From the sequence record DRR378314_778: 64,000 nucleotides of DNA, one strand, 5' to 3'. Shown here in pieces: positions 35,140-49,479 of the stretch. The translations under genes and the position numbers were made by a program. Numbering within the stretch: the stretch's first letter is position 1; each line of letters begins with the position of its first letter. The notes under the pieces are model-generated. The model was not told where the DNA came from. It was given only the letters and a program-made list of their open reading frames with translations, and searched no databases.

Positions 35140-35652
35140 CTAAAAATTTCTCTGTTCTTTGTAAGCTCTGTGATCGCGGTAGATTTTGACATTTTGAGCA
35201 GAAGTTTTCAAAAAAATCAGATAATCTAAAGACCATGAACCCGGACCTTGACGCATGATTGCTAGTGAGAGAGCCATCCAGCCGAGATGGGTCGACAAAA
35301 AAGCGTCGGGATAGACAAAGATCTGTATCACCATGGTCATGATCAGCAGACCGGCTGCAGCAAATCGTGTGCAAAACCCGATCAATAGCATCAACGGCAG
35401 GATATGCTCTGCATATGTTGCAAGTGGTACTAGTAAATCAGCTGAGAAAAACGGTAAGTTATACTCTTCTTCAAACAGGTAATAGGTGCTGTCGCTGATG
35501 GTCAGGAGATCCGTGACCTTCGTGCGGGCAGACACCCAGAATATACCGGCAAGCCCAAGGCGCAGGGACAGTTTGACCAGACTGTCTGGTATTCTGGACA
35601 TCAGTGCAATAGTGCTGGTGGTGTTCGTGTAGATAAAACTGGTGGTTTGCAT
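35140..35652 (-). CDS. DoxX family membrane protein (BufD-like)
   Basis: LFEEEY.LP, AEHILP, TRFAA, IQIFVYP, GPGSWSLD; alternative start at 35601. Confidence 0.88.
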   Translation of the reverse strand: MQTTSFIYTNTTSTIALMSRIPDSLVKLSLRLGLAGIFWVSARTKVTDLLTISDSTYYLFEEEYNLPFFSADLLVPLATYAEHILPLMLLIGFCTRFAAAGLLIMTMVIQIFVYPDAFLSTHLGWMALSLAIMRQGPGSWSLDYLIFLKTSAQNVKIYRDHRAYKEQRNF

Positions 35653-36392
35653 GTTGTTAACTCTCCGTTTTTTGGGCCGTCAATGCTCAGAAAACCCAAG
35701 TTTAAGTATTTGACAAAAGTCTCAATCATTAAGGTAGCCTGTTGTTCATCATCGCTTTTCTGAATGTGATTGATGAAAGGCATGCGATCTTGGATTAGGC
35801 TGAGACAATCGTGCTCCTGATCCGGAATAATGAGCTGATGGAGGTCGCCATTTGCAGGCCAGATCGCAACAGTCTCTCCTATCCAGTGGGGCACCGGATC
35901 AGGCACTTCTCGCTGATGGTGTGTCCATATGGTGCCCACAGGATAAGATGACTTGAGCAGGGTCGCGCCAGGTGTGCATCTTATAGGGAGGTGGAGTGCC
36001 TGAAGAATGTCATCCTCAGTTGAAATGAGGCGGAATGGCAAAGCGCCACTACCTTGGGCGTTAGATCTGGCCCACTCTAGTCGCGCCATGTCGGCCAGGT
36101 ACGGAACCTGGCGAGCGGGTTCGAAATTGTCCAGAAAATTGGAAAAATCCCCTCCATACTCCGTTAATAGGGGGGAGGTTGGTGGAAATTGCGTTGCATA
36201 TTCCGTTGCAAGGGCGCCAAAAAAGTCCGATCCCACCAGTTTTTTTGCCACAGGAAATACATCGCTGAGCACATCAATTAGCTGCGAGAAATAGTTGCTG
36301 CGATAAACATCAAACCTGCTTCCCGTGTTGAGAATATCACGAGGAAGGCTAGCTTGTGCGTCCCTTATGGCATTGGCAAAGGCTTTTATCAT
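35601..36392 (-). CDS. DUF2063 / HvfC-BufC-type MNIO partner protein
   Basis: RFDVYR.N, FP...LVG.DFF, P.SP.L.EYG..F, PYLADMARLEW. Confidence 0.88.
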   Translation of the reverse strand: MIKAFANAIRDAQASLPRDILNTGSRFDVYRSNYFSQLIDVLSDVFPVAKKLVGSDFFGALATEYATQFPPTSPLLTEYGGDFSNFLDNFEPARQVPYLADMARLEWARSNAQGSGALPFRLISTEDDILQALHLPIRCTPGATLLKSSYPVGTIWTHHQREVPDPVPHWIGETVAIWPANGDLHQLIIPDQEHDCLSLIQDRMPFINHIQKSDDEQQATLMIETFVKYLNLGFLSIDGPKNGELTTCKPPVLSTRTPPALLH

Positions 36393-37282
36393 AGGGATTG
36401 CTCCCGCGCCGAAGTAATTAAAAGCCGGGCATGGGCGACTTCCTGAAGAAGGGTATCTAACGGCGGGACATTGTTATCGCGCTCGATCAATGTGGGGCGT
36501 GGGCCAATCTTTGAGAGAACATCGCAATATAGTGACCAGACTGCCTCATCGACTTCCATGCCATGGGTGTCTACAAAGAATGGGTTACCATTGTCATCTT
36601 CAGACGGTTCATGACCGGCCAGATGGATTTCACCGACGGTCTGAAGGGGGATGCGTGAAAGCCAGTCAGCTGTCTGCCAGCCATGGTTTTGGGTGGAAAC
36701 ATAGAGATTATTGACATCGAGAAGGAGACCACAGGACGTGAGATGGACAAGTTCGGCTATAAAGTCGGCTTCAAACAGGGTATCGGACCGAAACCTGACA
36801 TAGTTAGCCGGATTTTCAATCAGTATGCGCCTGCCGAGGAACTGCTGAACCCGGTCGATACGATTGGCCAGATGACGCAAGTTTTGTTTGTTATAGGGGA
36901 TCGGCAGCAGATCGTTGAAATAGACGCCCTTGTGGCTTGACCAGGCGATATGTTCAGAAAAACTGGCCGGCTGAATTGTATCGACCAGATATTTCAGACG
37001 TTCAAGATGATCTTGATTGAGGGGGTCCTCACCGCCGAGGGATAGGGCAACACCGTGAATGGAAATGGGCCAAGTCTTCGAGATGTCCTTAAGGAGCTCA
37101 AGGCGCGGGCCATTATCCATAAAGTTTTCAGCATGGATTTCTACAAAATTAATAGAACCGGGATTGGCTTGAAGCTCAGAGAGGTGTTCTCGCTTCAAAC
37201 CAACCCCGACACCAAGGGGCAGCCTCGACCAGTCGGTGGGGGCGGGGTTTAGGTAACCGGTATTCGAAGGCATGCCGACCAT
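36389..37282 (-). CDS. bufB: DUF692 multinuclear non-heme iron oxidase (bufferin maturase-like)
   Basis: EIHAENF, HGVALSLG, SEHIAW, DLLP, IENP, LLLDVNN, EIHLAGH, DTH, IERD. Confidence 0.92.
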   Translation of the reverse strand: MVGMPSNTGYLNPAPTDWSRLPLGVGVGLKREHLSELQANPGSINFVEIHAENFMDNGPRLELLKDISKTWPISIHGVALSLGGEDPLNQDHLERLKYLVDTIQPASFSEHIAWSSHKGVYFNDLLPIPYNKQNLRHLANRIDRVQQFLGRRILIENPANYVRFRSDTLFEADFIAELVHLTSCGLLLDVNNLYVSTQNHGWQTADWLSRIPLQTVGEIHLAGHEPSEDDNGNPFFVDTHGMEVDEAVWSLYCDVLSKIGPRPTLIERDNNVPPLDTLLQEVAHARLLITSAREQSL

Positions 37283-37284
37283 GG

Positions 37285-37581
37285 TTATTTACCTACTGCC
37301 TTATACTCCTTAAGCTGGCCGAAGCCTGTTGGGGAGCTTGGGGATTCAATAGTTGTGCAAGTTCCTTTCGGGACTAACTTCCAGGCGTTACTCTGATAAT
37401 CCTTTTTGGAACTGCCTGCGCAAGACGTGCCGGGCCCGGCTGCACAATCGTTGTAGCCAGCTAATGAAATGCCAAAACACTTCTCTTTTGGCTCTCGCGC
37501 CTCTGCAGGGTCAGCGGCTAGAAGGCCGCCAGCGACTGTGGCGAGGGCTGCAGAAATAACGGCCGTTTTTTTGATGGACAT
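37285..37581 (-). CDS. bufA1: DUF2282 bufferin-type precursor peptide
   Basis: Sec signal then EKCFG...[14 protein letters not shown]...W..VPKGTC (4 Cys). Confidence 0.92.
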
Positions 37582-39110: not shown

Positions 39111-40022
39111 TCAGATGAAGTCCACGGTTCTAAAATGTCGCTCAATCAGTTTGGTGAAGAGATGAGAGGCTTTGTCCAGATTTTGGTGGGCAGATACGAT
39201 TGTTCCCACAGAATAGTCTTTTAGATGGTTATCTTGAAACGGAATAAAGCGGACTTCCTTGGTGTCCACCTCGGATAAAAATCCGATTTTGGTATAGATA
39301 CCGATTCCGATGCCTGAGAGGATCGCCTGCTTGGCCATGATGTGAGAGTTGGTGTAGAAAATTGTCGACAGTGGCGTCTTAAGCAGATCGATTTCCTGAT
39401 CAATAAAAGATGATTTTCTCCGGGCATCCAGTGTTCTAACTTGCTGGAAAGGGATACAGTCTTCAATGTTCACAAAATCTCTGTCAGCTAGGGGATGATT
39501 TGGCGAGACTAGCAGACCCATGGGAGCAGGGACTTCTGCCAGGATCCGAAGTTCAGGATGAAAATCGTTAATCTGGTTGGTAAAGCTCAAGCCGATATCA
39601 GTCTCACCGCGGGCAATATGCTCATTTATCTCACCTGGACCCAGTGTTTCCACCGAAAAGGAAACTCCTGGATATTCTTGAGAAAATTCCTTCAATACTT
39701 TAGGGAGGAAATCAAAAACCATTGAGTCGATGGCGGCGATTTTTACGTGACCGGTCTTTAACTCCCGAATGTCATCAATCTCGGCCCGTGCCTGATTAAA
39801 ATAGTACAGGGTCTTGCGACAATGTTCGACAATTACCTTGCCTGCGGGTGTTAATTCGACCCCGTCCGGAACCCGGTCAAATAGCCGCATTCCAAATTCT
39901 TCTTCCAGCTTGAGAATCTGCCTGTTTATGGCTGAGGACGCTACGTTTAAGACCTTCGCAGCCTTTCGAATTGATCCCTGCCTAGCGACTTCATCTACGT
40001 ACCTTATGGACGGATGGTGCAT
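39111..40022 (-). CDS. LysR family regulator
   Basis: GSIRKAAKVLNVASSAINRQILKLEEE. Confidence 0.93.
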   Translation of the reverse strand: MHHPSIRYVDEVARQGSIRKAAKVLNVASSAINRQILKLEEEFGMRLFDRVPDGVELTPAGKVIVEHCRKTLYYFNQARAEIDDIRELKTGHVKIAAIDSMVFDFLPKVLKEFSQEYPGVSFSVETLGPGEINEHIARGETDIGLSFTNQINDFHPELRILAEVPAPMGLLVSPNHPLADRDFVNIEDCIPFQQVRTLDARRKSSFIDQEIDLLKTPLSTIFYTNSHIMAKQAILSGIGIGIYTKIGFLSEVDTKEVRFIPFQDNHLKDYSVGTIVSAHQNLDKASHLFTKLIERHFRTVDFI

Positions 40023-40207
40023 TTTGAATAATTATTCCAATAAGTTAGTTGCGATGCCATTTCGGCATCAACATAGACTAATTTCTCTTCTTATGGCAGC
40101 ATACTTCTGCTGCTAAAGTCAATCCATAAGAAAGATAAGGTCGAAGCAGATCGCTATGTGGGAGAAACTAATTAAGTTTGCATCAAACAAATAAAGGGGA
40201 TTTTTAG

Positions 40208-41251
40208 ATGTCAACGAAACATATAATAAATATAGGACGGAGAGGCTTTGTAAAGGGACTTGGGGCGACAGCTGGATTTGCAGCTGCTGGGACAGTTCTT
40301 GGATTTTCACGATCTGTGCATGCCGATACTTTTGACGTGAATATGCAACTTGGCTGGATTGCTTCAAACGGTCAATTGGGTGAGGTCGCTGCCGATCACC
40401 TTGGCTATTATAAAGATGAAGGCCTATCCCTGAAAATTACACCTGGTGGGCCAAATGTGGATGGAATTGCTTCTGTGGCTTCTGGGCGGGCCCAGGTTGG
40501 ACAGCTTTCTTCCAGTCCTTCATTGATGTTGGCGCGTTCTGCCGGAATTCCGATTAAGTGTGTTGCAGCTGGCTATCAGCAACATCCATTCACCTATTTC
40601 TCCCTCAAGAAAAACCCGATTAATTCGCCTAAAGACATGGTCGGTAAAACAATCGGAACTCAGGGTACAGCAAGGATTCTGCTGCGGGCGATGCTTGCAA
40701 AACATGGCATTTCCTATGATGACGTGAATGTTGTGGTCATGGGGGGAGATATGGGGCCATTGATGAATGGCCAGGTGGATGCGGTAACTGGATGGCAGTC
40801 CAATATCAACGCGCTCAATATTCTGGGTGACCAACGTGTCGACATGCGGCTTTGGGATACCGGTATTCAGCTTTATGCGAACCCATTTTATGTGACTGAC
40901 GAAACGCTGCAAAAACATTCAGAGAAAGTTGAAGGCTTCATCCGGGCAACTGCAAAAGGTTGGGGTTGGGTTCATGCCAACCCGCAAAAAGCAGTTGAGC
41001 TTCTGGTGGAGCGGTATCCAAACATGAAACTGGAATCTGAGCGGCAAGCAGTCGACATTATATTGCGCTACGTTTTTAATGAAGAAACAAAGGCTGCCGG
41101 TTGGGGGACCATGACATCCGCAAACTGGGAAGCTCAAATCGAAACATACGAAAGCTTGGATCAGTTCAAGGGGGATGTCCCCAAATTGAGCGATGTCATG
41201 ACGCTTGACATTTTGGAGGCCACAAAAGCCAGTCGTCCAAAGTTAGGTTGA
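40208..41251 (+). CDS. ABC substrate-binding protein, NMT1/THI5-like, Tat-exported
   Basis: GRRGFVKG Tat motif; [16 protein letters not shown]. Confidence 0.87.
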
Positions 41252-41255
41252 TCCA

Positions 41256-42068
41256 ATGCGAAGTGAACTTGCTGTCGATATACCAAGCCCTGTGCCAGAT
41301 GAAACTGCTTATGCGGCGCATTTAACGGATGCTTGTGTCAAGTTTGGGGACTTTATTGCCCTCGATAAGATTAATCTGTCCGTGGAGGATGGAACCTTTA
41401 TGACCATATTGGGTCCATCCGGATGCGGTAAATCCACTTTGTTGAGGCTGATATCTGATCTTATCCCCATTGCTGGTGGGGATGTTCGGATTTTTGGGAG
41501 AACTCCAACGGAAGCAAGATTACCTCGTGAGTTTTCATTTGTTTTCCAGGATGCAACCCTGTTGCCCTGGAGAACAGCCATAGAAAATGTAAGGCTTCCT
41601 TTGGAGATGGGCGTTCGCAAAGATCGTCCGCTTCATCTCAGTGAGAGAAGCCCTGAAGAGTTGTTAGAGCTGGTAGGGTTGAAAGGGCGTGAAGATGCTT
41701 TGCCTCATGAACTTTCCGGTGGCATGCGTCAAAGGGTAGCGATTGCACGTGCCTTGGTTTGTAAGCCGCGTTTGCTGTTGATGGATGAACCGTTTGGTGC
41801 TCTCGATGAAATTACGCGGGATCATTTGAACGAACAAATCCTGAATATCTGGAAAGAAACCGGCGTGACAATTTTGTTTGTCACTCATTCCATTCCAGAA
41901 GCAATTTTCTTGGGTCAGAAATGCCTCATGCTAAGTGCGCACCCCGGACGTGTGATGGAAGTGGTAGATGTTGATTTGCCCCACCCCAGAAAGCTGGCCG
42001 TGCGAGAGACCAAGGAATTCGTAGATATCGCCGCCCACTTACGCGGCTTGTTGGAGGCAGCGCAATGA
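41256..42068 (+). CDS. ABC ATPase (TauB/SsuB-type)
   Basis: [34 protein letters not shown]. Confidence 0.93.
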
Positions 42069-42877
42069 CAAACGCAGTCGAAGGCAAGGTAGGTTTGGAT
42101 ACATCAAAAATCATCATCCGCTTGCTCGGAATGAAATATGTTCCGCCCATGCTGGCAGCAATTGGGCTGATTGTCTTGTGGGAGTTGGGGGTCAAGATTT
42201 TTGGTGTTCCAACGTATATCGCACCTGCACCAAGTGATATAGGCACGGTACTGGTCACTGACATTGACATACTGATGACCAATTTCTGGCCAACGCTTTT
42301 TGAGAGTTTGCTGGGCTTCGTGTTTGGGAATTTGTTTGGGATATTGGCCGCGATTGTCTTTGTCCACTTCAAGAGGTTGGATGCGGCTTTCTTTCCATTG
42401 GCGGTTTTCGTCAATACAATCCCCATTTTAGCAATCGCGCCAATACTGGTGCTAATCTTTGGGAATGGATTGACGGCAAAAGTCATTATCGCATCCTTGA
42501 TCTGCTTCTTTCCAACCTTGGTGAATATGGTGCGCGGATTGCAGGCTGTTAATCCTCAAATGCTGGAATTGGCGCGAATTCTTTCCGCCTCAAAACCGGA
42601 GGTGTTCTGGATGATGCGCCTTCAGATGTCTTTGCCTTATCTGTTTTCTGCTCTCAAGATCGCCTCAACGACCTGTGTTATCGGCGCTATTGTCGGCGAA
42701 TGGGTAGGTGCGGATGTGGGGCTTGGGGCGTTGATTATTGACGCCACCTTCAACTTCAGGGCTCCGCTCTTGTACGCCACGGTGTTTGTGTCCTCTGGCC
42801 TTGCAGTGGTGCTGTTTTCCACCGTCACAATTGCAGAGAAAGTGTTGATCAAATGGAAGCCTGAGCAGGCAGTTTGA
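42065..42877 (+). CDS. ABC permease (TauC/SsuC-type)
   Basis: [19 protein letters not shown]. Confidence 0.92.
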
Positions 42878-42943
42878 ATAAAAAACAAGCGTATTAATTA
42901 AATCTAAATTGAGCTTCTAACGACTCAAGTTAAGGAGATAGCT

Positions 42944-44305
42944 GTGTCTAATTTCGATAGAAAAAGCATTACAGAAATGACCCGTGAGGTACCGGTTGTT
43001 GCCCAATCAGATGTCGTTGTCGTGGGTGGTGGACCTGCTGGATTTACTGCTGCTGTGTCAGCAGCCCGAAATGGTTGCTCGGTCACTCTGCTGGAGAGAT
43101 ATCATCATCTTGGCGGGATGGCTTCTGGCGGTATGGTGTTGGTTCTAGACGACATGGTCAACGGTATGGAAGTGACCGTTAAAGGAATTGTGGATGAGCT
43201 CGTGGCCAATATGGCGCGTGAAAATGGCGCTGTTTTTCCACCGCCTGAGGATTATGGTTCCAGTGAAGAGCTATGGCAGAAATGGTCTCGCTGGGGCGTT
43301 CATAATTTTCACCTTCCGACACATCCACAACCGATTATTCATGCGGTCGCTTTTGATCCGGATGCTTGGAAACGAGCCTCCTTGCAGATGGTCAAGGAAG
43401 CCAATATCAACTTGCGCCTGCATAGCTGGTTTGCGGACACTATTGTCGAGGATGGCAAGGTTAAAGGTGTAGTTGCGCAGACGAAAACCGGTCGGCAGGC
43501 GATCCTAGGCGATGTGATTGTTGATGCTACCGGTGATCTTGATGTGGCGGCAGGCGGTGGCGCTGAATTCCAGACAGGTCAATATATCGTGACCACCGTA
43601 TTCCGGATTGCGAATGTGGATACGGATGAAGCAGAAAGATTCCGCTTCGAACACCCCAAAGAATATAACAAGCTCGATCGAGAGGCCCGCCGGATTATTG
43701 GCGGAGCCTGGGAAATGTGGTGGCTTAAAACACCGATCCCTGGCGTTGTGTGGTGCAACTGCCCGCACATGCCTGGCTACGATGGCATCTCAGTTGAAGA
43801 CAATACGCGGGCCGAATATGAAGGCCGCCGCCGTATGATGGCCCTCTTTGACTACGCCAAAAAGAACCTGCCAGGCTTCCAGAATTCCAGTATGTTGGGA
43901 GCGGCAGAGCAGTTGGGTATTCGGCAGACCCGGATGCTCAAGGGCGAGTATGTGGTGACCAAAGAGGATGTCACCAGCCGTCGTCATTTTGCCGATACTG
44001 TCTGTCGTGGCCGTGATTATTACACGCCATATCGGGCTTTGTTGCCGAAAAACTTGGACGGACTGATTGTTGCTGGCCGTCACTATTCAGCTGAGCCGGA
44101 AGCCCAAAAAATGTCTAGGGAAATCCCGCCTTGCATGGTGCAGGGAGAGGCAGCAGGCATAGCGGCCTCTTTGGCCTTGAACGGTAATATTTCCCTTCGG
44201 GATGTGGATCCAAAAGCTATTCAAAAACAAATGCGGGTCCAGGGTGCGGATCCTGGAGATGTGCCTTCAGACAACGCGTTGGTTGAAACCTTGGCGGCCG
44301 AATAA
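42944..44305 (+). CDS. FAD-dependent oxidoreductase of unknown substrate
   Basis: DVVVVGGGPAG, LGGMASGG, DATGDLDVA, GIRQTR, PYRALLP, GEAAG. Confidence 0.88.
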   Translation: MSNFDRKSITEMTREVPVVAQSDVVVVGGGPAGFTAAVSAARNGCSVTLLERYHHLGGMASGGMVLVLDDMVNGMEVTVKGIVDELVANMARENGAVFPPPEDYGSSEELWQKWSRWGVHNFHLPTHPQPIIHAVAFDPDAWKRASLQMVKEANINLRLHSWFADTIVEDGKVKGVVAQTKTGRQAILGDVIVDATGDLDVAAGGGAEFQTGQYIVTTVFRIANVDTDEAERFRFEHPKEYNKLDREARRIIGGAWEMWWLKTPIPGVVWCNCPHMPGYDGISVEDNTRAEYEGRRRMMALFDYAKKNLPGFQNSSMLGAAEQLGIRQTRMLKGEYVVTKEDVTSRRHFADTVCRGRDYYTPYRALLPKNLDGLIVAGRHYSAEPEAQKMSREIPPCMVQGEAAGIAASLALNGNISLRDVDPKAIQKQMRVQGADPGDVPSDNALVETLAAE

Positions 44306-44330
44306 AGTAATTTGAGAGAGAGTATCAAAA

Positions 44331-45485
44331 ATGACCAAGACAAGAGACTTGCCCCTTGATGGGATCCGGGTCGTGGACTTTACCCAAGTCATGCTTGGCC
44401 CCTGTGCCACTCAGGCATTGGCAGATTTTGGGGCGGATGTGATTAAGGTCGAACGGCCAGGAACGGGCGAGCTGTCGCGTAATGTGTTTGGCGGGAAGAA
44501 TGAGAAAGATCTGAACAATCCGATTTTTTATAGTCTGAACCGAAACAAACGGTCGATCACTCTGGATACCCGTAGTGATGAAGATAAAGATCTTGTCTAT
44601 GAACTGGTGAAGCAATCGGATGTGGTGGTCAATAACTTCCGACCAGGTGTTATGGACCGTATGGGTTTTGGCTATGAAAAACTGAAAGAAATTAATCCTC
44701 AGATTATCTTTGCATCGGGTTCCGGTTTTGGTCAGAGCGGTCCATATGTGCATAAAGGCGGACAGGATGTGTTAGCGCAGGCCATGACCGGCGTGATGGA
44801 ACGCCGTGCGGATCCATCTATTCCCCGGTCAATTTATCCGACGGCCCTTTGTGACTACACAGCGGGTATGCATCTGGTTCAGGGAATTTTGGCAGCCCTG
44901 CTTAATCGTCACAAAACCGGCGAAGGGCAGGAAGTATCTGTCTCCCTATACAATTCCATGCTCGCAATGCAGATGCAGGAAGCTTCCTACTGGGCATTTG
45001 AACATGCAGATCTGAACTGGGCCGCACTTCCTCTGACAGGCGTGTTTGATACGACTGATGGGGCGGTGGTTCTGGTAGGGGCGTTCAAAATGAACCCACT
45101 ACAAGACATCAGTACCGCTCTGGAATTAGGGGAAGATTTGTCGGAGAGGTACCCTGATCTTGAGACTCAGATTACCAATAAGGACTATCTGCAAGCACGA
45201 TTCAGGAAGGCGTTTGCCTCCAGTACCACAGCTTACTGGATATCTCGTTTGGAAGAGCAGGATCTCTTATGTGCGCCTGTAAAATCCTTGGACGAAGCTT
45301 TGGAGGATCCACAGACAATTCATAATAAAATGGTGACCTCCATGGACCACCCCCTGCATGGGAAGATCAAGGTGATCTCTTCGCCCATCCAGTTTTCAGG
45401 AACGCCGTTTCAGGTCTATCGTCCAGCCCCGACCCTTGGTCAGCACAATGCAGAGATCCGGGCAGAGTTTGGGGGCCTGAAATGA
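44331..45485 (+). CDS. Class III CoA transferase (CaiB/BaiF)
   Basis: PLDGIRVVD, GADVIKVE, NRNKRS, NNFRPG, AP.LGQH. Confidence 0.93.
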   Translation: MTKTRDLPLDGIRVVDFTQVMLGPCATQALADFGADVIKVERPGTGELSRNVFGGKNEKDLNNPIFYSLNRNKRSITLDTRSDEDKDLVYELVKQSDVVVNNFRPGVMDRMGFGYEKLKEINPQIIFASGSGFGQSGPYVHKGGQDVLAQAMTGVMERRADPSIPRSIYPTALCDYTAGMHLVQGILAALLNRHKTGEGQEVSVSLYNSMLAMQMQEASYWAFEHADLNWAALPLTGVFDTTDGAVVLVGAFKMNPLQDISTALELGEDLSERYPDLETQITNKDYLQARFRKAFASSTTAYWISRLEEQDLLCAPVKSLDEALEDPQTIHNKMVTSMDHPLHGKIKVISSPIQFSGTPFQVYRPAPTLGQHNAEIRAEFGGLK

Positions 45486-46258
45486 CAGTCACGCTGGAGA
45501 AGAAAGACCAAGTCGCCTATGTCACCATTCGCCGACCAGAGCGAATGAATGCGATAGATAGTGCAGCTGAAGCTGCCTTGGAGCAAATCTGGACGGATAT
45601 TGAAGGCGATGACAGTCTGCGGTGCGTGGTGATCACCGGCGAGGGCGAAAAAGCGTTCTGTGCCGGTGCAGATATGAAATCTGGCAGCGAAGTCAGCGGT
45701 GTTGAGTATTGGGCCCGCTCGCAAACCAATGGGTTTGGGGGGCTGGCCTATCGCGATAGCCTGTCCATTCCCATAATTGCGCGGGTCAACGGATTTGCCC
45801 TTGGCGGTGGATTTGAGATGCTGATGGGCTGCGACATTATTATTGCAGTGGATTATGCAAAATTTGGCTTACCTGAAGCCAAGGTTGGCCGCCTCCCTCT
45901 GGAAGGAGGAATGGTGCTGTTGCAGCGATTAATCCCTCAGAAAATTGCCCTTGGGATTATGTTGTCCGGCCGCAATTTGCTGGCTCAGGATGCCAAGCAT
46001 TATGGGTTTGTGAATGAGGTTGTGCCTTACGATCAGTTGGATGCAACTGTAGATCAGTGGATTACCGATATCAAATCCTGCGCGCCGCTTTCCATTAAGG
46101 CGATCAAGGATACGGTCCAGAAAACGGCGCATCTGATGCCGAAAGAGGCGCAAGCACTTCGCACACCAGCCTTGATCAAGGCCCTTCAATCCAAAGATTC
46201 CGAAGAAGGCGTGAAAGCTTTTGTTGAAAAACGCACTCCTCAGTGGACTGGGACCTAA
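45482..46258 (+). CDS. Enoyl-CoA hydratase / crotonase family protein
   Basis: AFCAGAD, NGFALGGGFE, FGLPE, EGVKAFVEKR. Confidence 0.93.
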   Translation: MTVTLEKKDQVAYVTIRRPERMNAIDSAAEAALEQIWTDIEGDDSLRCVVITGEGEKAFCAGADMKSGSEVSGVEYWARSQTNGFGGLAYRDSLSIPIIARVNGFALGGGFEMLMGCDIIIAVDYAKFGLPEAKVGRLPLEGGMVLLQRLIPQKIALGIMLSGRNLLAQDAKHYGFVNEVVPYDQLDATVDQWITDIKSCAPLSIKAIKDTVQKTAHLMPKEAQALRTPALIKALQSKDSEEGVKAFVEKRTPQWTGT

Positions 46259-46274
46259 GAGAGGAGTTTATATA

Positions 46275-46607
46275 ATGACATATGTAATTACAGCGCCTTG
46301 TGTAGATGTCAAAGATGGTGAGTGTACCAACGTATGCCCTGTTGATTGCATATATGAAGGGGGACGGATGTTCTATATTCATCCGGGTGAGTGCGTGGCT
46401 TGCGGCCTTTGTGAGTCAGTCTGCCCGGTGGATGCGATCCGTAAAATCGCTTTCGTGGAGCCAGAGGAGGAATCCTATGTTCTCGCCAATGAGGAATATT
46501 TCTCCGATCAAGTGACAGGGCTCGGTCTGGCTGGTGGATGGAATGCTACAACAACGACCATACTCGACCATCCGTTGATCACTGCACTTCCGCCCCAGAA
46601 AACTTAA
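46275..46607 (+). CDS. 7Fe (FdxA-type) ferredoxin
   Basis: MTYVITAPCVDVKD..C...CPVDCIY..ECVACGLCESVCP; GAGGAG RBS. Confidence 0.92.
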   Translation: MTYVITAPCVDVKDGECTNVCPVDCIYEGGRMFYIHPGECVACGLCESVCPVDAIRKIAFVEPEEESYVLANEEYFSDQVTGLGLAGGWNATTTTILDHPLITALPPQKT

Positions 46608-46630
46608 CTTATAATTTCGGAGATTTTCTG

Positions 46631-47530
46631 TTGGAAAAACAACCGTTAAGCGGTGTGATCGCCGCCATTCCAACTCCTGTTGATGAGGCAGGGAACCTGC
46701 ATTTGGAACATTTCATTTCGCATGCGAAATGGGTGCTTGCCAATGGATGCAATGGTTTAAATGTGCTCGGTACAACCGGGGAAGCGAATTCACTATCGGT
46801 GGAGGCGCGACTGATGATAATGGAGGCTGCCGCACAGCATCTGGACACATCAGATTTGATGGTGGGGACCGGTACACCAGATTTTGAGACGGCAGAACTG
46901 TTGACCCGTCATGCTGCAGATCTTGGATTTGCGGGGGCTTTGATCCTGCCGCCCTACTACTACAAACCGGTATCGGATGAAGCACTTTACGACTGGTTTA
47001 CCCGTTTGGTGAGAGTAATTTCGAAAACGGATATCAAACTGTATCTGTATAATTTCCCGGTCATGACTGGGATTAAATACTCGGTTGACCTGCTAGTTCG
47101 ACTGGCAGCTGATTTTCCGGGGCGAATTTGCGGGATCAAGGATTCGTCCGGAGATCTTGAATATTGTCAGGAGATCGTAAAGAGAATTCCGGGCTTCGCC
47201 GTATTTCCCAGCAGTGAGACAACCCTACCCACCGCGCAAACAGAAGGTTATGCCGGTTGCATTTCAGCTACCGTGAACTTGACAGCACCCCTATCGCAGA
47301 TAGCCTGGCAAAATCAGGATGCCGAGAAAGCTCTGATGTTGACAGATAAACTCAATCAGTTGCGGACCAGTATATCGGCAACGCCTCTGGTTCCCTCCAT
47401 CAAATATCTTTTGTCATTGCAGTATGGAACGGCAGATTGGCGCCCGGTTCTCCCTCCATTGCAACCCCTGCAGGCGATAGCTATTGAAAAATTGGCAGCT
47501 GTTTTCGAGCAGCTAAAAACTCAAGCTTAA
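46631..47530 (+). CDS. DHDPS/NAL family lyase or dehydratase
   Basis: LGTTGE, PPYYYK, LYNFP, GIKDSSG; TTG start after GGAG. Confidence 0.88.
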   Translation: MEKQPLSGVIAAIPTPVDEAGNLHLEHFISHAKWVLANGCNGLNVLGTTGEANSLSVEARLMIMEAAAQHLDTSDLMVGTGTPDFETAELLTRHAADLGFAGALILPPYYYKPVSDEALYDWFTRLVRVISKTDIKLYLYNFPVMTGIKYSVDLLVRLAADFPGRICGIKDSSGDLEYCQEIVKRIPGFAVFPSSETTLPTAQTEGYAGCISATVNLTAPLSQIAWQNQDAEKALMLTDKLNQLRTSISATPLVPSIKYLLSLQYGTADWRPVLPPLQPLQAIAIEKLAAVFEQLKTQA

Positions 47531-47555
47531 ATTTAGTGAAGAAACGGACGATCAA

Positions 47556-48992
47556 ATGGAAGTGAAAGCAAACCTTATTGGTGGGAAATGGGTCACCGGA
47601 AAAACGACACAGAAAAACATTAATCCATCTGATATTTCAGATGTGATTGGAATATATGCTCAGGGCTCCGCGGATGATGTTTCTGCTGCGGCCGAAGCCG
47701 CTAAAAAAGCACAAGGTACCTGGGCAAATCTGGATGCGCAAAGCCGTCATGATATTCTGGATAAGACCGGGAATACCATCCTCGCCCGTAAAGAAGAGCT
47801 TGGTAGATTGCTGGCCCGTGAAGAAGGTAAGATCTTGCCTGAAGCCATTGGCGAAACTATTCGAGCTGGCAATGTTTTCAAGTTTTTTGCCGGTGAGTGT
47901 CTTCGTAACACTGGAGATCTTGTTGAGGCCGTCCGTCCCGGAATAGGCATTGAAGTTACCCGGGAACCTGTTGGTATTGTCGGTCTGATCACTCCTTGGA
48001 ACTTTCCTATTGCGATACCTGCCTGGAAGATAGCGCCTGCTCTCGCGTTCGGAAATATCGTGATTTGCAAACCGGCTGATTTGACGCCTGGATGTGCCCA
48101 TGCAATAGCCGAGATTTTAATGGAAAGTGGACTACCAGAAGGGGTTTTCAATCTAATTATGGGTCGTGGTTCGGTAGTGGGTGAGGCGATGCTGGATCAT
48201 CCGGATATAAATGCAATTTCTTTTACAGGATCTGTGAATACAGGTCGTCATGTCGCAGAGAAATGCTTGCAGGGCATGAAGAAGGTCCAGCTTGAAATGG
48301 GGGGCAAGAATCCAACTGTTGTCCTTGATGATGCGGATTTGGATGTTGCGGTTTCCAGCTGTCTAAACAGTGCTTTTTTCTCCACGGGACAACGCTGTAC
48401 GGCTTCGTCCCGTTTTATTGTGCAGGAAGGGATTTATGATGCGTTTGTTAGTCGTCTGACTGAACAGATGCAGGCCTTGAAGGTAGGCCAGGCCCTTTCA
48501 GCAGATAGCCAAATCGGCCCGGTTGTGGATGAGCGGCAACTATTATCCAATCTGAAATATGTGGACCTGGCGAAAGAAGAGGGGGCAACAGTTGTCGGTG
48601 GGGAGCGTGTTGAAGCATCTACTGAGGGATACTTCCAGCGGCCAGCCTTGTTCGCAAATACCAGCAATAACATGCGGATCAATCAGGAGGAAATTTTTGG
48701 ACCCTGTGCCAGCGTCATTAAGGTCAAAGATTTTGAAGAAGCGGTGACCGTTGCCAATGATACAGAATTCGGACTGTCCGCCGGGATTTGCACGCAAAGC
48801 CTGAAGTATGCCGCTGAGTTCAAGAAACGGGCTCAGGCAGGTCTTGTAATGGTGAATTTACCGACTGCGGGGATTGATTATCATGTACCCTTTGGTGGCC
48901 GAAAGGGATCCAGCTATGGGCCACGAGAACAAGGAAGTTATGCCAAAGAATTCTACACAATTGTGAAAACCAGTTACATCTCCGTTGGCTGA
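47556..48992 (+). CDS. Aldehyde dehydrogenase, alpha-ketoglutaric semialdehyde dehydrogenase-like
   Basis: TPWNFPIAIPAWK, QLEMGGKN, STGQRCTAS, DYHVPFGG.K.SSYGPREQG. Confidence 0.85.
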   Translation: MEVKANLIGGKWVTGKTTQKNINPSDISDVIGIYAQGSADDVSAAAEAAKKAQGTWANLDAQSRHDILDKTGNTILARKEELGRLLAREEGKILPEAIGETIRAGNVFKFFAGECLRNTGDLVEAVRPGIGIEVTREPVGIVGLITPWNFPIAIPAWKIAPALAFGNIVICKPADLTPGCAHAIAEILMESGLPEGVFNLIMGRGSVVGEAMLDHPDINAISFTGSVNTGRHVAEKCLQGMKKVQLEMGGKNPTVVLDDADLDVAVSSCLNSAFFSTGQRCTASSRFIVQEGIYDAFVSRLTEQMQALKVGQALSADSQIGPVVDERQLLSNLKYVDLAKEEGATVVGGERVEASTEGYFQRPALFANTSNNMRINQEEIFGPCASVIKVKDFEEAVTVANDTEFGLSAGICTQSLKYAAEFKKRAQAGLVMVNLPTAGIDYHVPFGGRKGSSYGPREQGSYAKEFYTIVKTSYISVG

Positions 48993-49008
48993 TTGAGTTG
49001 GGAAGATC

Positions 49009-49479
49009 ATGACTTTACCGGACACAATACCTTTGAAATGGCGCCGACGGTTCATGGAGCTGGCAACCCACATTTCAGAATGGACAGAGGATAGGGATTT
49101 TAAGGTTGGTGCCGTCATTGTAGGCACCAATAACGAAATCAGATCAACAGGTTATAATGGTCTTCCTCGCAAGGTCAAGGCAAACGATGGAACACGCTTT
49201 GACCGCAAAACCGGAGAGAAATTTTTCTGGTTTGAGCACGCTGAGAGGAACGCCATTTATAACGCAGCCTATTTTGGTGCCTCTCTTGCCGGGTGTAACC
49301 TCTATGTAAATAGGTTCCCTTGCGCTGACTGCGCACGCGCGATTATTCAGAGCGGGATCACAGGCGTTTGCGCACCGCCTAAACCAAGCCAAGATGGGGC
49401 GCTGGATCATAGTTTTGACGTGTCGGAAACCCTCCTGAAAGAGGCAGGAATTGATCTCTTTGTCTTTGGGATAGACTAA
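49009..49479 (+). CDS. dCMP deaminase-like zinc deaminase
   Basis: VGAVIV, TGYNG, HAERNAI, PCADC. Confidence 0.88.
   Translation: MTLPDTIPLKWRRRFMELATHISEWTEDRDFKVGAVIVGTNNEIRSTGYNGLPRKVKANDGTRFDRKTGEKFFWFEHAERNAIYNAAYFGASLAGCNLYVNRFPCADCARAIIQSGITGVCAPPKPSQDGALDHSFDVSETLLKEAGIDLFVFGID

Follow-up and report, generated by a model that had tools for sequence, protein, structure and literature searches.

Which compound is broken down by a set of enzymes that all fall into familiar superfamilies and yet match no recognised pathway? This question is raised by the region 39111-49479 of DRR378314_778, a stretch of DNA of 64,000 nt that is referred to here as the window. In this region a gene for a LysR-family regulator lies on the minus strand opposite ten close-set genes on the plus strand (40208-49479), giving 11 genes in total. 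The ten genes encode an ATP-binding cassette (ABC) importer with its periplasmic binding protein, an FAD-dependent oxidoreductase (FADox), a class III CoA-transferase, a crotonase, a ferredoxin, a DHDPS-like enzyme, an aldehyde dehydrogenase (ALDH) and a deaminase. They are read here, with moderate confidence, as a catabolic operon induced by its substrate, an anionic, nitrogen-containing (hetero)cyclic carboxylic acid that the cell imports. This acid, probably a dicarboxylate, would be degraded by a reductive CoA-dependent route ending near 2-oxoglutarate. The broader proposal, that the genes constitute one uncharacterised CoA-dependent catabolic unit for a nitrogen-containing acid, is considered rather probable, and reductive ring opening within that unit is put forward tentatively.

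The original prediction, made from the letters of the window, had described a nine-gene operon. All the genes that it named were found in place and on the expected strands, and the divergence of lysR from a co-oriented gene run agreed with the coordinates, strands and Pfam matches; the count had to be corrected to ten co-oriented genes plus lysR, the three ABC genes having been taken as one. The genes of the ten-gene run are separated by -4 to 66 bases, with the start of the permease gene overlapping the ATPase stop by 4 bases and spacings of only 16-25 bases among the distal genes, and the G+C content is uniform over the operon region. The inverted repeat at 40088-40132, between lysR and the first operon gene, is a candidate LysR operator. 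A promoter-like site for lysR was present at 40060-40031; such sites are not enriched in comparison with shuffled sequences. The LysR protein reached no NCBIfam equivalog cut-off.

Genome neighbourhoods were compared in a scan of one genome per species, which gave 289 pattern matches. A relative of FADox is encoded at 185 of these; the 80 best were retained together with flanks of at most 10 kb, and the window proteins were searched by BLASTP against all reading frames of the 80 loci. Downstream genes were counted in the 68 loci with at least 6.5 kb of downstream sequence. Throughout the 80 loci, from Alpha- and Gammaproteobacteria, the order is constant: a divergent lysR, transporter, FADox, CoA-transferase, crotonase and ferredoxin, followed by the optional DHDPS-like, ALDH and deaminase genes. 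The same order in so many genera is far beyond chance, and the co-conservation of the genes as one unit was thus borne out. LysR occupies the position seen in the window in 59 of the 68 loci having at least 5.5 kb upstream, and a second LysR type is found in six more. The three loci lacking a CoA-transferase match are one in which the gene lies 9 kb downstream (L030) and two whose contigs end early (L063, L066). FADox, CoA-transferase, crotonase and ferredoxin form a single selected core unit, and the three distal genes are accessories tied to this core. The cluster is not rare: among 301 sampled alphaproteobacterial species nine carry a FADox orthologue; the cluster is also present in sediment Gammaproteobacteria such as Woeseiaceae. 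A distant alphaproteobacterial subclade, in which FADox is 57-63% identical, has the core alone, with the exceptions of L099 (TRZ/ATZ hydrolase at the operon end) and L098 (convergent).

The relatives of FADox across Alpha- and Gammaproteobacteria are 70-96% identical to it, the nearest coming from two Sneathiella metagenome-assembled genomes (MAGs) at 95-96%. Cys271, Cys354 and Cys397 are invariant in 79 of 79 sequences and Cys273 is present in 78 of them. The best NCBIfam match is the geranylgeranyl reductase (GGR) superfamily (40.5 bits), with the similarity to GGR-type proteins limited to the FAD-binding part. The AlphaFold2 model of FADox is mediocre (mean predicted local distance difference test, pLDDT, 66); its fold matches include GGR-like structures (ranks 2 and 29), FixC (7koe_C) and flavin monooxygenases. 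No function for FADox was obtained from NCBIfam, Pfam, a PDB sequence search or the ESM Atlas, which gave only unnamed 'FAD-dependent oxidoreductase' clusters, and the 240 relatives listed are named in their sources as 'FAD-dependent oxidoreductase' or 'hypothetical protein' only.

The ferredoxin gene most likely starts at 46275 and not at 46221, where its open reading frame (ORF) begins, since alignments with the NCBIfam FdxA models begin only at residue 19 of that ORF and the orthologues begin with MTYVI. Cys9, Cys17, Cys21, Cys40, Cys43, Cys46 and Cys50 are invariant in 17 of 17 aligned orthologues and follow the pattern Cx7Cx3CP ... Cx2Cx2Cx3CP, in agreement with the 7Fe ferredoxin that had been predicted. 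The protein scored 119.2 bits with FdxA_Actino (cut-off 125) versus 76.6 bits with FdxA_Protbact. When a complex of FADox and ferredoxin was modelled, a score of 0.61 was obtained, the best of three controls reaching 0.00. In the benchmark, 116 of 157 solved complexes scored this high, as did 2 of 215 mismatched pairs; these counts hold just roughly here as the model was built on its own alignments. The model runs share at least 42% of their contacts, with a pLDDT of at least 83 for the partner. The 4Fe-4S loop of the ferredoxin (residues 38-49) is placed on the invariant FADox segments 246-258 and 273-277, beside Cys271/Cys273. These models support binding of the ferredoxin to FADox. The enoyl-CoA/acyl-CoA couple lies near -10 mV and is unable to reduce a low-potential ferredoxin; FADox would therefore more likely reduce a conjugated or aromatic acyl-CoA than act as a dehydrogenase. 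A precedent is archaeal geranylgeranyl reductase, a flavoprotein whose fold falls in the same broad class and which is served by an adjacent ferredoxin. The coordinates of all the features, and the occurrence of the genes among the loci, are collected in the table.

Features of the operon region of DRR378314_778, with profile matches and occurrence among the compared loci
Feature	Coordinates	Strand	Match or motif	Loci with gene
LysR-family regulator, divergent from the operon	39111..40022	-	Pfam HTH_1 66.6 bits, LysR_substrate 101.8 bits	
Divergent control region	40023..40207	.	perfect 9-nt inverted repeat TTCTTATGG N27 CCATAAGAA at 40088-40132	
Periplasmic binding protein with Tat signal, NMT1/THI5 family	40208..41251	+	Pfam NMT1 187.7 bits	
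ABC transporter ATPase	41256..42068	+	Pfam ABC_tran 112 bits	
ABC transporter permease	42065..42877	+	Pfam BPD_transp_1 106 bits	
FADox, PF12831 FAD-dependent oxidoreductase, hallmark gene	42944..44305	+	Pfam FAD_oxidored 289.5 bits	
Class III CoA-transferase	44331..45485	+	Pfam CoA_transf_3, positions 1-366 of 366, 368.9 bits	77/80
Crotonase-family enoyl-CoA hydratase	45482..46258	+	Pfam ECH_1 196.7 bits	68/68
7Fe (3Fe-4S + 4Fe-4S) ferredoxin, FdxA type, predicted FADox partner	46275..46607	+	Pfam Fer4 44 bits	68/68
DHDPS/NAL-family Schiff-base enzyme, accessory	46631..47530	+	Pfam DHDPS 157.7 bits	50/68
Aldehyde dehydrogenase, closest to 2,5-dioxopentanoate (KGSA) dehydrogenases, accessory	47556..48992	+	Pfam Aldedh 531.5 bits	38/68
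Cytidine deaminase (CDA)-fold, dCMP-deaminase-like zinc deaminase, accessory	49009..49479	+	Pfam dCMP_cyt_deam_1 76.7 bits	40/68

The two other core enzymes point to the chemistry of a CoA ester. The CoA-transferase is nearest to the formyl-CoA/oxalate, mesaconate and glutarate transferases and SUGCT, scoring under the cut-off with all of them; as these act on dicarboxylates, a dicarboxylate substrate is supported. With a full-length domain and a candidate catalytic residue, Asp175, invariant in 77 of 77 sequences, it has the features of a class III enzyme; Asp175 is presumed to be the active-site aspartate from its role in the Frc family. In the crotonase, Glu112 and Glu132 occupy the motif positions of the catalytic pair and are invariant in 76 of 76 sequences. 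We take them to be the catalytic glutamates from the motifs GGGxE and GxPE, and the retention of both is what is expected of a crotonase-type enoyl-CoA hydratase. Orthologue alignments gave the same picture of invariant putative catalytic residues for the crotonase, CoA-transferase, DHDPS-like enzyme, ALDH and deaminase. PDB sequence searches with these proteins other than the deaminase, and with the binding protein and FADox, found no characterised close relative.

The import genes bear on the nature of the substrate. The N-terminus of the binding protein carries the twin-arginine motif GRRGFVKG followed by an AxA-like site ending in HA, and its NMT1 match (see table) places it in the NMT1 fold; a THI5-like protein exported by twin-arginine translocation (Tat) had been correctly recognised. 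Its best solved relatives are 3ix1 (E = 2.9e-20), the ThiY protein that binds N-formyl-4-amino-5-(aminomethyl)-2-methylpyrimidine (FAMP), and 4nmy. The closest of these, ThiY, is a pyrimidine binder, and this is counted in favour of an N-heterocycle; the match amounts to just 76 bits, and the ligands of the family also include sulfonates, taurine and nitrate. The closest NCBIfam models of the ATPase are the nitrate, taurine and SaoA ATPases, all under the cut-off. Among the 61 loci complete on both sides, the importer is of the ABC type in 54 and belongs to the major facilitator superfamily (MFS) in seven, all gammaproteobacterial. These MFS proteins are closest to D-galactonate-type anion symporters, and the exchange of one importer for the other points to an organic anion as the substrate.

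For the DHDPS-like gene, the most likely start is the TTG codon at 46631, because GGAG lies eight bases ahead of it and the ATG at 46538 would create an overlap of 70 bases with the ferredoxin gene. Lys201, Tyr171, Tyr141 and the (S/T)79-T80 pair, each present in 52 of 52 orthologues, supply the Schiff-base lysine and the Tyr/Thr triad motifs of the DHDPS/NAL superfamily. The arginine that binds aspartate semialdehyde is taken to be Arg138 in the numbering of E. coli DapA; the orthologues have Met (48/52) or Leu (4/52) at this position, which argues that the enzyme is not DapA. The dapA model TIGR00674 likewise gave 128.9 bits against a cut-off of 206. The closest structure is the uncharacterised 3b4u, which also lacks the DapA arginine according to the accessible text of bioRxiv 10.1101/505230.

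The adjacent ALDH has the catalytic cysteine, Cys281 in FSTGQRCTA, invariant in 40 of 40 sequences. Its top two models are the dehydrogenases of 2,5-dioxopentanoate (α-ketoglutaric semialdehyde, KGSA), GucD with 530.4 bits (cut-off 770) and DioxValDh with 518.4 bits (cut-off 750); the next model follows at 426 bits. The KdgD models gave 56.3 bits (TIGR03249, cut-off 374) and 68.2 bits (PRK03620, cut-off 278) for the DHDPS-like protein. With both enzymes below the cut-offs, the lower Weimberg route with its KGSA dehydrogenase, which had been invoked for this pair, is to be seen as a resemblance and not as membership.

Two genomes with an ALDH-less operon have a free-standing ALDH orthologue (58-63% identity), the context of one of which was uninformative. 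The other lies in a Woeseiaceae MAG (L103, G010:C60, 5268-13999), where the orthologue (58%) accompanies an Ldh_2-family dehydrogenase, a LysR, an M19 dipeptidase-like protein and a betaine/carnitine/choline transporter (BCCT); this context hints, weakly at best, at imino-acid metabolism. In four loci (L043 13981-15549, L009, L002 and L092 3660-5327), which come from a Halomonas genome, an Amphritea MAG, a Sneathiella MAG and a genome of an actinobacterium, the operon is adjoined by a gene for a divergent ALDH-like protein some 520 residues long (Pfam Aldedh only 141-155 bits), possibly one more accessory enzyme.

The same enzymes can be arranged in a module of the β-oxidation type, as in carnitine metabolism. 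In this arrangement FADox would oxidise an acyl-CoA to the enoyl-CoA and pass the electrons to the ferredoxin, and the crotonase would form the 3-hydroxyacyl-CoA. With a C6 2-oxo or 2-amino dicarboxylate of the 2-oxoadipate/2-aminoadipate type the β-hydroxyl would come to lie on C4 of a 2-oxo acid, and the DHDPS-like protein, as a class I aldolase, would release pyruvate and an aldehyde at the level of malonate semialdehyde for the ALDH. Both putative glutamates of a true hydratase are kept, the CoA-transferase is of the dicarboxylate type, and the DHDPS-like enzyme retains the pyruvate-binding Lys, Tyr and Thr in the absence of the DapA arginine (bioRxiv 10.1101/505230, accessible text). The replacement of ALDH by a short-chain dehydrogenase/reductase (SDR) in actinobacterial and mycobacterial versions also fits an aldehyde that can be reduced or oxidised. 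Such a module is nevertheless somewhat unlikely. On the potentials given above, the transfer of electrons from acyl-CoA dehydrogenation to ferredoxin is thermodynamically unfavourable, and the operon has neither an acyl-CoA dehydrogenase nor an electron-transfer flavoprotein (ETF). The CaiB and CaiD models of carnitine metabolism gave 117.9 versus 413 and 174.6 versus 500 bits (score versus cut-off). The ALDH is closest to KGSA dehydrogenases (methylmalonate-semialdehyde dehydrogenase 296 versus 530 bits), and the ThiY-like binding protein and the recurring deaminases are left unexplained.

The terminal deaminase aligns over its full length with 7fh4 (E = 4.9e-23), the dCMP/dCTP deaminase of the chlorovirus PBCV-1 (bioRxiv 10.1101/2024.12.05.627091, accessible part). 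His77, Glu79, Cys105, Cys108, Gly48, Asn50 and Gly51 are invariant in 42 of 42 sequences, so that the protein carries the dCMP-deaminase motifs HAE, PCxxC and GYNG; the dCMP-deaminase equivalog ComEB (TIGR02571) gave 55.1 bits against 219. In the five genomes examined first, an orthologue is present only where the operon has one, and none occurs elsewhere in four genomes with a deaminase-less operon (Paracoccus versutus, Denitrobaculum, Halomonas and Woeseiaceae). Of the 301 Alphaproteobacteria, three genomes have copies of at least 62% identity, all of them among the nine FADox-positive ones. Relatives at 38-51% identity were found in 17 FADox-negative Alphaproteobacteria, mostly with small genomes, and are presumably ordinary dCMP deaminases. 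The restriction of close copies to FADox-positive genomes suggests that the operon deaminase is a recruited branch of the dCMP-deaminase family. The deaminase had originally been placed in the pathway as a fixed step; its occurrence in the loci (see table), with no second copy in the four genomes, does not allow this.

If the distal genes vary so freely, the region might not encode one pathway at all: a transporter with the core unit, a DHDPS/ALDH pair and a housekeeping dCMP deaminase could simply lie side by side. All eight combinations of the three optional genes are indeed seen among the 68 loci (all three in 27, none in 10, DHDPS-like only in 10, DHDPS-like with ALDH in 7, DHDPS-like with deaminase in 6, deaminase only in 4, ALDH with deaminase in 3 and ALDH only in 1), and the relatives in the 17 FADox-negative species are probably ordinary dCMP deaminases. 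The recurrence of order and strand across orders and classes makes mere adjacency very improbable. The distal gaps of the window are also narrow, the close deaminase copies are restricted to the operon, and a core-only genome (G005) has no close DHDPS-like orthologue elsewhere, the best match outside the operon being 29% identical. Moreover, unrelated deaminases hold the same position in other lineages.

Deaminases of other types adjoin the operon in several lineages. A TRZ/ATZ-family amidohydrolase lies behind or beside the MFS gene in the gammaproteobacterial L008, and further amidohydrolases are present in gammaproteobacterial versions (L028, L068, L030). Long adenosine-deaminase-like proteins are encoded in L008, L022 and L024, the last of these having a purine nucleoside permease and a xanthine/uracil permease upstream; 5'-nucleotidase genes lie upstream in Woeseiaceae loci. 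In the actinobacterial L092 (FADox 58% identical) the order is helix-turn-helix (HTH)-cupin regulator, ABC importer, FADox, CoA-transferase, crotonase and weak DHDPS-like gene, and then a cytidine deaminase (119 bits, cut-off 131), an adenosine deaminase (240.6 bits, cut-off 216.6), an MFS protein and an SDR. Relatives of FADox 64-67% identical to the L092 copy occur in many Streptomyces and other Actinobacteria, under no other name than 'FAD-dependent oxidoreductase'. At the operon end, different lineages thus carry hydrolytic deaminases of three unrelated folds. No other evidence speaks as strongly for the involvement of an amino-substituted heteroaromatic ring or a nucleobase, and the link to deamination of an amino-heterocycle or nucleoside that had been proposed is reinforced.

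A nucleoside- or DNA-derived acid, such as a (deoxy)nucleoside 5'-carboxylate or a deoxyribose-derived acid, would account for part of this record. CoA activation would permit β-elimination in the sugar with release of the base, the five-carbon remainder would reach 2-oxoglutarate by way of 2,5-dioxopentanoate, and the deaminases would act on the cytosine or adenine part. The full-length relationship of the deaminase to dCMP/dCTP deaminases speaks for such a substrate, as do the cytidine and adenosine deaminases inside the actinobacterial operon, the adenosine-deaminase-like, permease and 5'-nucleotidase genes adjoining gammaproteobacterial versions, and the closeness of the ALDH to KGSA dehydrogenases. 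We know of no abundant natural source of nucleoside-derived acids, however, and NMT1-type binding proteins are not known as nucleoside binders. The flavoprotein-ferredoxin pair would be left without a clear role, the 5'-nucleotidase neighbours all come from Woeseiaceae and count as one observation, and ten loci lack all three accessory genes. A substrate of this kind is thus distinctly unlikely.

A related cluster may connect the operon with nitrogen supply. In M. smegmatis under nitrogen starvation, expression of msmeg_1151-1153 and msmeg_1155-1157 was 3.7-4.4 fold higher in the wild type than in a strain deleted for glnR, as given in the accessible part of PMC4222082. The annotations there are DNA-binding protein, citrate-proton symporter and FAD-dependent oxidoreductase for msmeg_1151, 1152 and 1153, and carnitinyl-CoA dehydratase, dihydrodipicolinate synthetase and SDR for msmeg_1155, 1156 and 1157; msmeg_1155 and msmeg_1156 are also among the regulated genes of a zinc study (PMC7174638, accessible part). 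The order of regulator, acid symporter, FAD-dependent oxidoreductase, dehydratase, synthetase and SDR is like that of the operon, and the msmeg_1151-1158 cluster is apparently homologous to it. The mycobacterial cluster, likewise uncharacterised, is unlike the operon in having an MFS protein for the ABC importer and an SDR for the ALDH, and the accessible text lists no ferredoxin or deaminase. The short words shared with the M. smegmatis cluster are 3 of 180 for FADox and 8 of 180 for the CoA-transferase. GlnR-dependent expression suggests a nitrogen-yielding substrate and a function in nitrogen scavenging.

On the reading as a reductive catabolic operon for a nitrogen-containing acid, the cell would use the acid as a source of both carbon and nitrogen. 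The LysR protein would activate the divergent operon, and the acid would enter through the ABC importer with its Tat-exported, ThiY/THI5-like binding protein, or through the anion-type MFS protein in some lineages. The class III CoA-transferase would then make the acyl-CoA, with CoA probably coming from the last thioester of the pathway or from succinyl-CoA. In the fourth step the 7Fe ferredoxin would give low-potential electrons to FADox, which would reduce a ring or conjugated C=C bond of the acyl-CoA. The crotonase would hydrate the β carbon, and a hydration next to the ring nitrogen would open the ring. The DHDPS-like enzyme would take the resulting 2-oxo or 2-imino acid in a sixth step, as an imine-hydrolysing deaminase or as a dehydratase, for which the DHDPS-family Pyr4H2C deaminase of hydroxyproline catabolism is a precedent. 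In the seventh step the ALDH would oxidise the aldehyde end to 2-oxoglutarate. Since this returns reducing equivalents, the route would be net hydrolytic and would not need oxygen. The optional deaminase of the eighth step would admit amino-substituted forms of the substrate or salvage nitrogen from a released cytosine- or adenine-like moiety.

Dipicolinate may serve as a worked example. By our own stoichiometry on paper, with each enzyme used once, dipicolinate + 2[H] + 2 H2O would give 2,5-dioxopentanoate + glycine, and both reducing equivalents would be regained in the ALDH step. Dipicolinate is the main small molecule of bacterial spores, and dipicolinate-oxidising bacteria are said, in an old report, to yield 2-oxoglutarate and 3-hydroxydipicolinate. 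In its boldest form the proposal would be an oxygen-independent, 'benzoyl-CoA-like' route for N-heteroaromatic acids in aerobic and denitrifying Proteobacteria and in Actinobacteria. A ferredoxin-fed PF12831 flavoenzyme would dearomatise the heteroaroyl-CoA, the crotonase would hydrate and open the ring, and the substrate could be dipicolinate, going to 2-oxoglutarate and glycine. We regard this form as doubtful.

Several findings weigh against the reductive route. The FADox model matches just generic two-domain flavoproteins in the PDB (Foldseek, template modelling, TM, score 0.33-0.44), monooxygenases included, and FADox may have the role of an oxygenase or a dehydrogenase instead. No enzyme of the operon reaches a curated NCBIfam equivalog cut-off. 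The ferredoxin is missing from the actinobacterial L092, where none lies within 20 kb, and from the alphaproteobacterial L101. Its absence from the actinobacterial locus, together with the actinobacterial-like FdxA score, suggests that the proteobacterial operon brings along a partner that Actinobacteria already have as a housekeeping ferredoxin. The adenosine and cytidine deaminases of L092 could be ordinary nucleoside genes merely lying alongside. The apparent homology with the M. smegmatis cluster rests on the order of annotations and a related actinobacterial locus. As all three accessory genes are missing from 10 of the 68 complete loci, steps six to eight would not be obligatory parts of the unit. 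Finally, the dipicolinate scheme leaves the deaminase without a role, and for this reason dipicolinate itself is held to be an unlikely substrate.

Other substrates were considered on paper and set aside. Two hydrations of pyrrole-2-carboxylate would give 2,5-dioxopentanoate by our own stoichiometry, but the conserved flavoprotein-ferredoxin pair would then be idle. Homarine was dropped because the published make-up of homABCDER differs from that of the operon. γ-Butyrobetaine/carnitine, ectoine, orotate and picolinate (known pic route) were discarded for enzyme misfit or because the pathway is already known, and likewise β-alanine, glutarate and deoxyribonate (known oxidative routes). The pyrimidine carboxylate of thiamine is too scarce to feed growth.

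Some further observations were made on the loci and on the rest of the window. A MAG labelled Solirubrobacteraceae (Actinomycetota; L039, G006) has an operon of the alphaproteobacterial type, with FADox and deaminase 71-72% identical to those of the window; this is either a recent transfer or a binning error. The FdxA_Actino-like ferredoxin and the ferredoxin-less loci L092 and L101 may reflect a transfer in which the unit and its redox partner moved jointly. Directly downstream of the operon, the segment 49994-59019 holds a second uncharacterised cluster, with an NMT1-type binding protein (minus strand), TetR, an ABC permease, an amidase, an epimerase-like protein, a GNAT protein, a weak DHDPS-like gene, an ABC ATPase and a protein like arylmalonate decarboxylase/Asp-Glu racemase. 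At 35140-37581 (minus strand) a gene of the MbnB/TglH/ChrH family is accompanied by DUF2063, DUF2282 and DoxX, a widespread set of the DUF692 type. The segment 25207-34889 is a cluster of the sugar-acid type, which we take to resemble threonate/erythronate-type catabolism. It encodes a tripartite ATP-independent periplasmic (TRAP) transporter, two Iso_dh proteins (tartrate-dehydrogenase-like), a four-carbon acid-sugar-kinase-like protein (SBD_N/NBD_C), a class II aldolase, an SMP-30 lactonase-like protein, a GFO/IDH oxidoreductase and a GntR regulator.

A pathway that has already been characterised but was missed has little probability. The homarine operon shows that marine pathways of this kind are being solved at present, and this is the point in its favour. 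The NCBIfam equivalogs (release of June 2026) provide no name for any enzyme of the operon, however, the FADox relatives bear the two generic names mentioned above, and homABCDER, as far as its accessible description goes, is built differently. In the full-text literature, with most subscription journals outside the search, the gene set was found only in the two M. smegmatis transcriptome papers. The view that the operon matches no recognised pathway was thus upheld within NCBIfam, Pfam, PDB sequence searches, the ESM Atlas and this literature. Solving the operon would annotate thousands of genes, and a large branch of PF12831 flavoproteins, as well as the flavoprotein-ferredoxin pair, would acquire its first known function. 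The recycling of a widespread nitrogen-containing organic acid in soil, sediment and sea water, which may proceed without oxygen, would probably also be explained.

Among the known systems, caiTABCDE and fixABCX of E. coli likewise act with a class III CoA-transferase and a crotonase on the CoA ester of a transported nitrogen-containing acid, and pair a flavoprotein with a ferredoxin-like protein, FixC/FixX, in the redox step; FixC is among the fold matches of FADox. The operon is unlike cai in that it has no acyl-CoA dehydrogenase of the CaiA type and no ETF, uses another transporter family, and adds the DHDPS-like enzyme, ALDH and deaminase. The lower routes of hydroxyproline, pentonate and glucarate degradation (LhpC, L-2-keto-3-deoxyarabonate (L-KDA) dehydratase or KdgD with 2,5-dioxopentanoate dehydrogenase) share with it a DHDPS-family gene directly upstream of an ALDH gene. 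They differ in that the upstream chemistry of the operon would proceed through CoA esters and the DHDPS/ALDH pair is optional, being present in 34 of 68 loci. The anaerobic benzoyl-CoA and aerobic Box/Paa routes for aromatic acids resemble the proposal in thioester activation, ferredoxin-linked redox chemistry of the ring, a hydratase or ring opener of the crotonase family and a subsequent ALDH. Here the homology is confined to the crotonase and ALDH superfamilies; the operon has a CoA-transferase in place of a ligase and a single PF12831 redox flavoprotein, and the ring would likely be an N-heterocycle. Archaeal geranylgeranyl reductase and the 6-hydroxynicotinate reductase of Eubacterium barkeri are ferredoxin-fed flavoenzymes that reduce C=C bonds, the second on an N-heteroaromatic acid; unlike in the proposal for FADox, their substrates are not CoA esters.

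The marine homABCDER operon, compared by gene make-up only and from the accessible part of its description (PMC13236597), is alike in being a widely conserved operon for an N-heterocyclic acid that ends in metabolites of the glutamate family. It is unlike the present operon in having the flavin-binding HomA with HomB, the peptidase-like HomC, the ALDH-like HomD and a transporter of the glycine-betaine type, and no CoA-transferase, crotonase or ferredoxin in that make-up. By the profile scores, the operon belongs to none of the carnitine, CoA-thioester aromatic and hydroxyproline/pentonate systems, since every curated equivalog cut-off tested was missed. CoA-dependent catabolic operons as such are already known; the new part would be the flavoprotein-ferredoxin step within such an operon.

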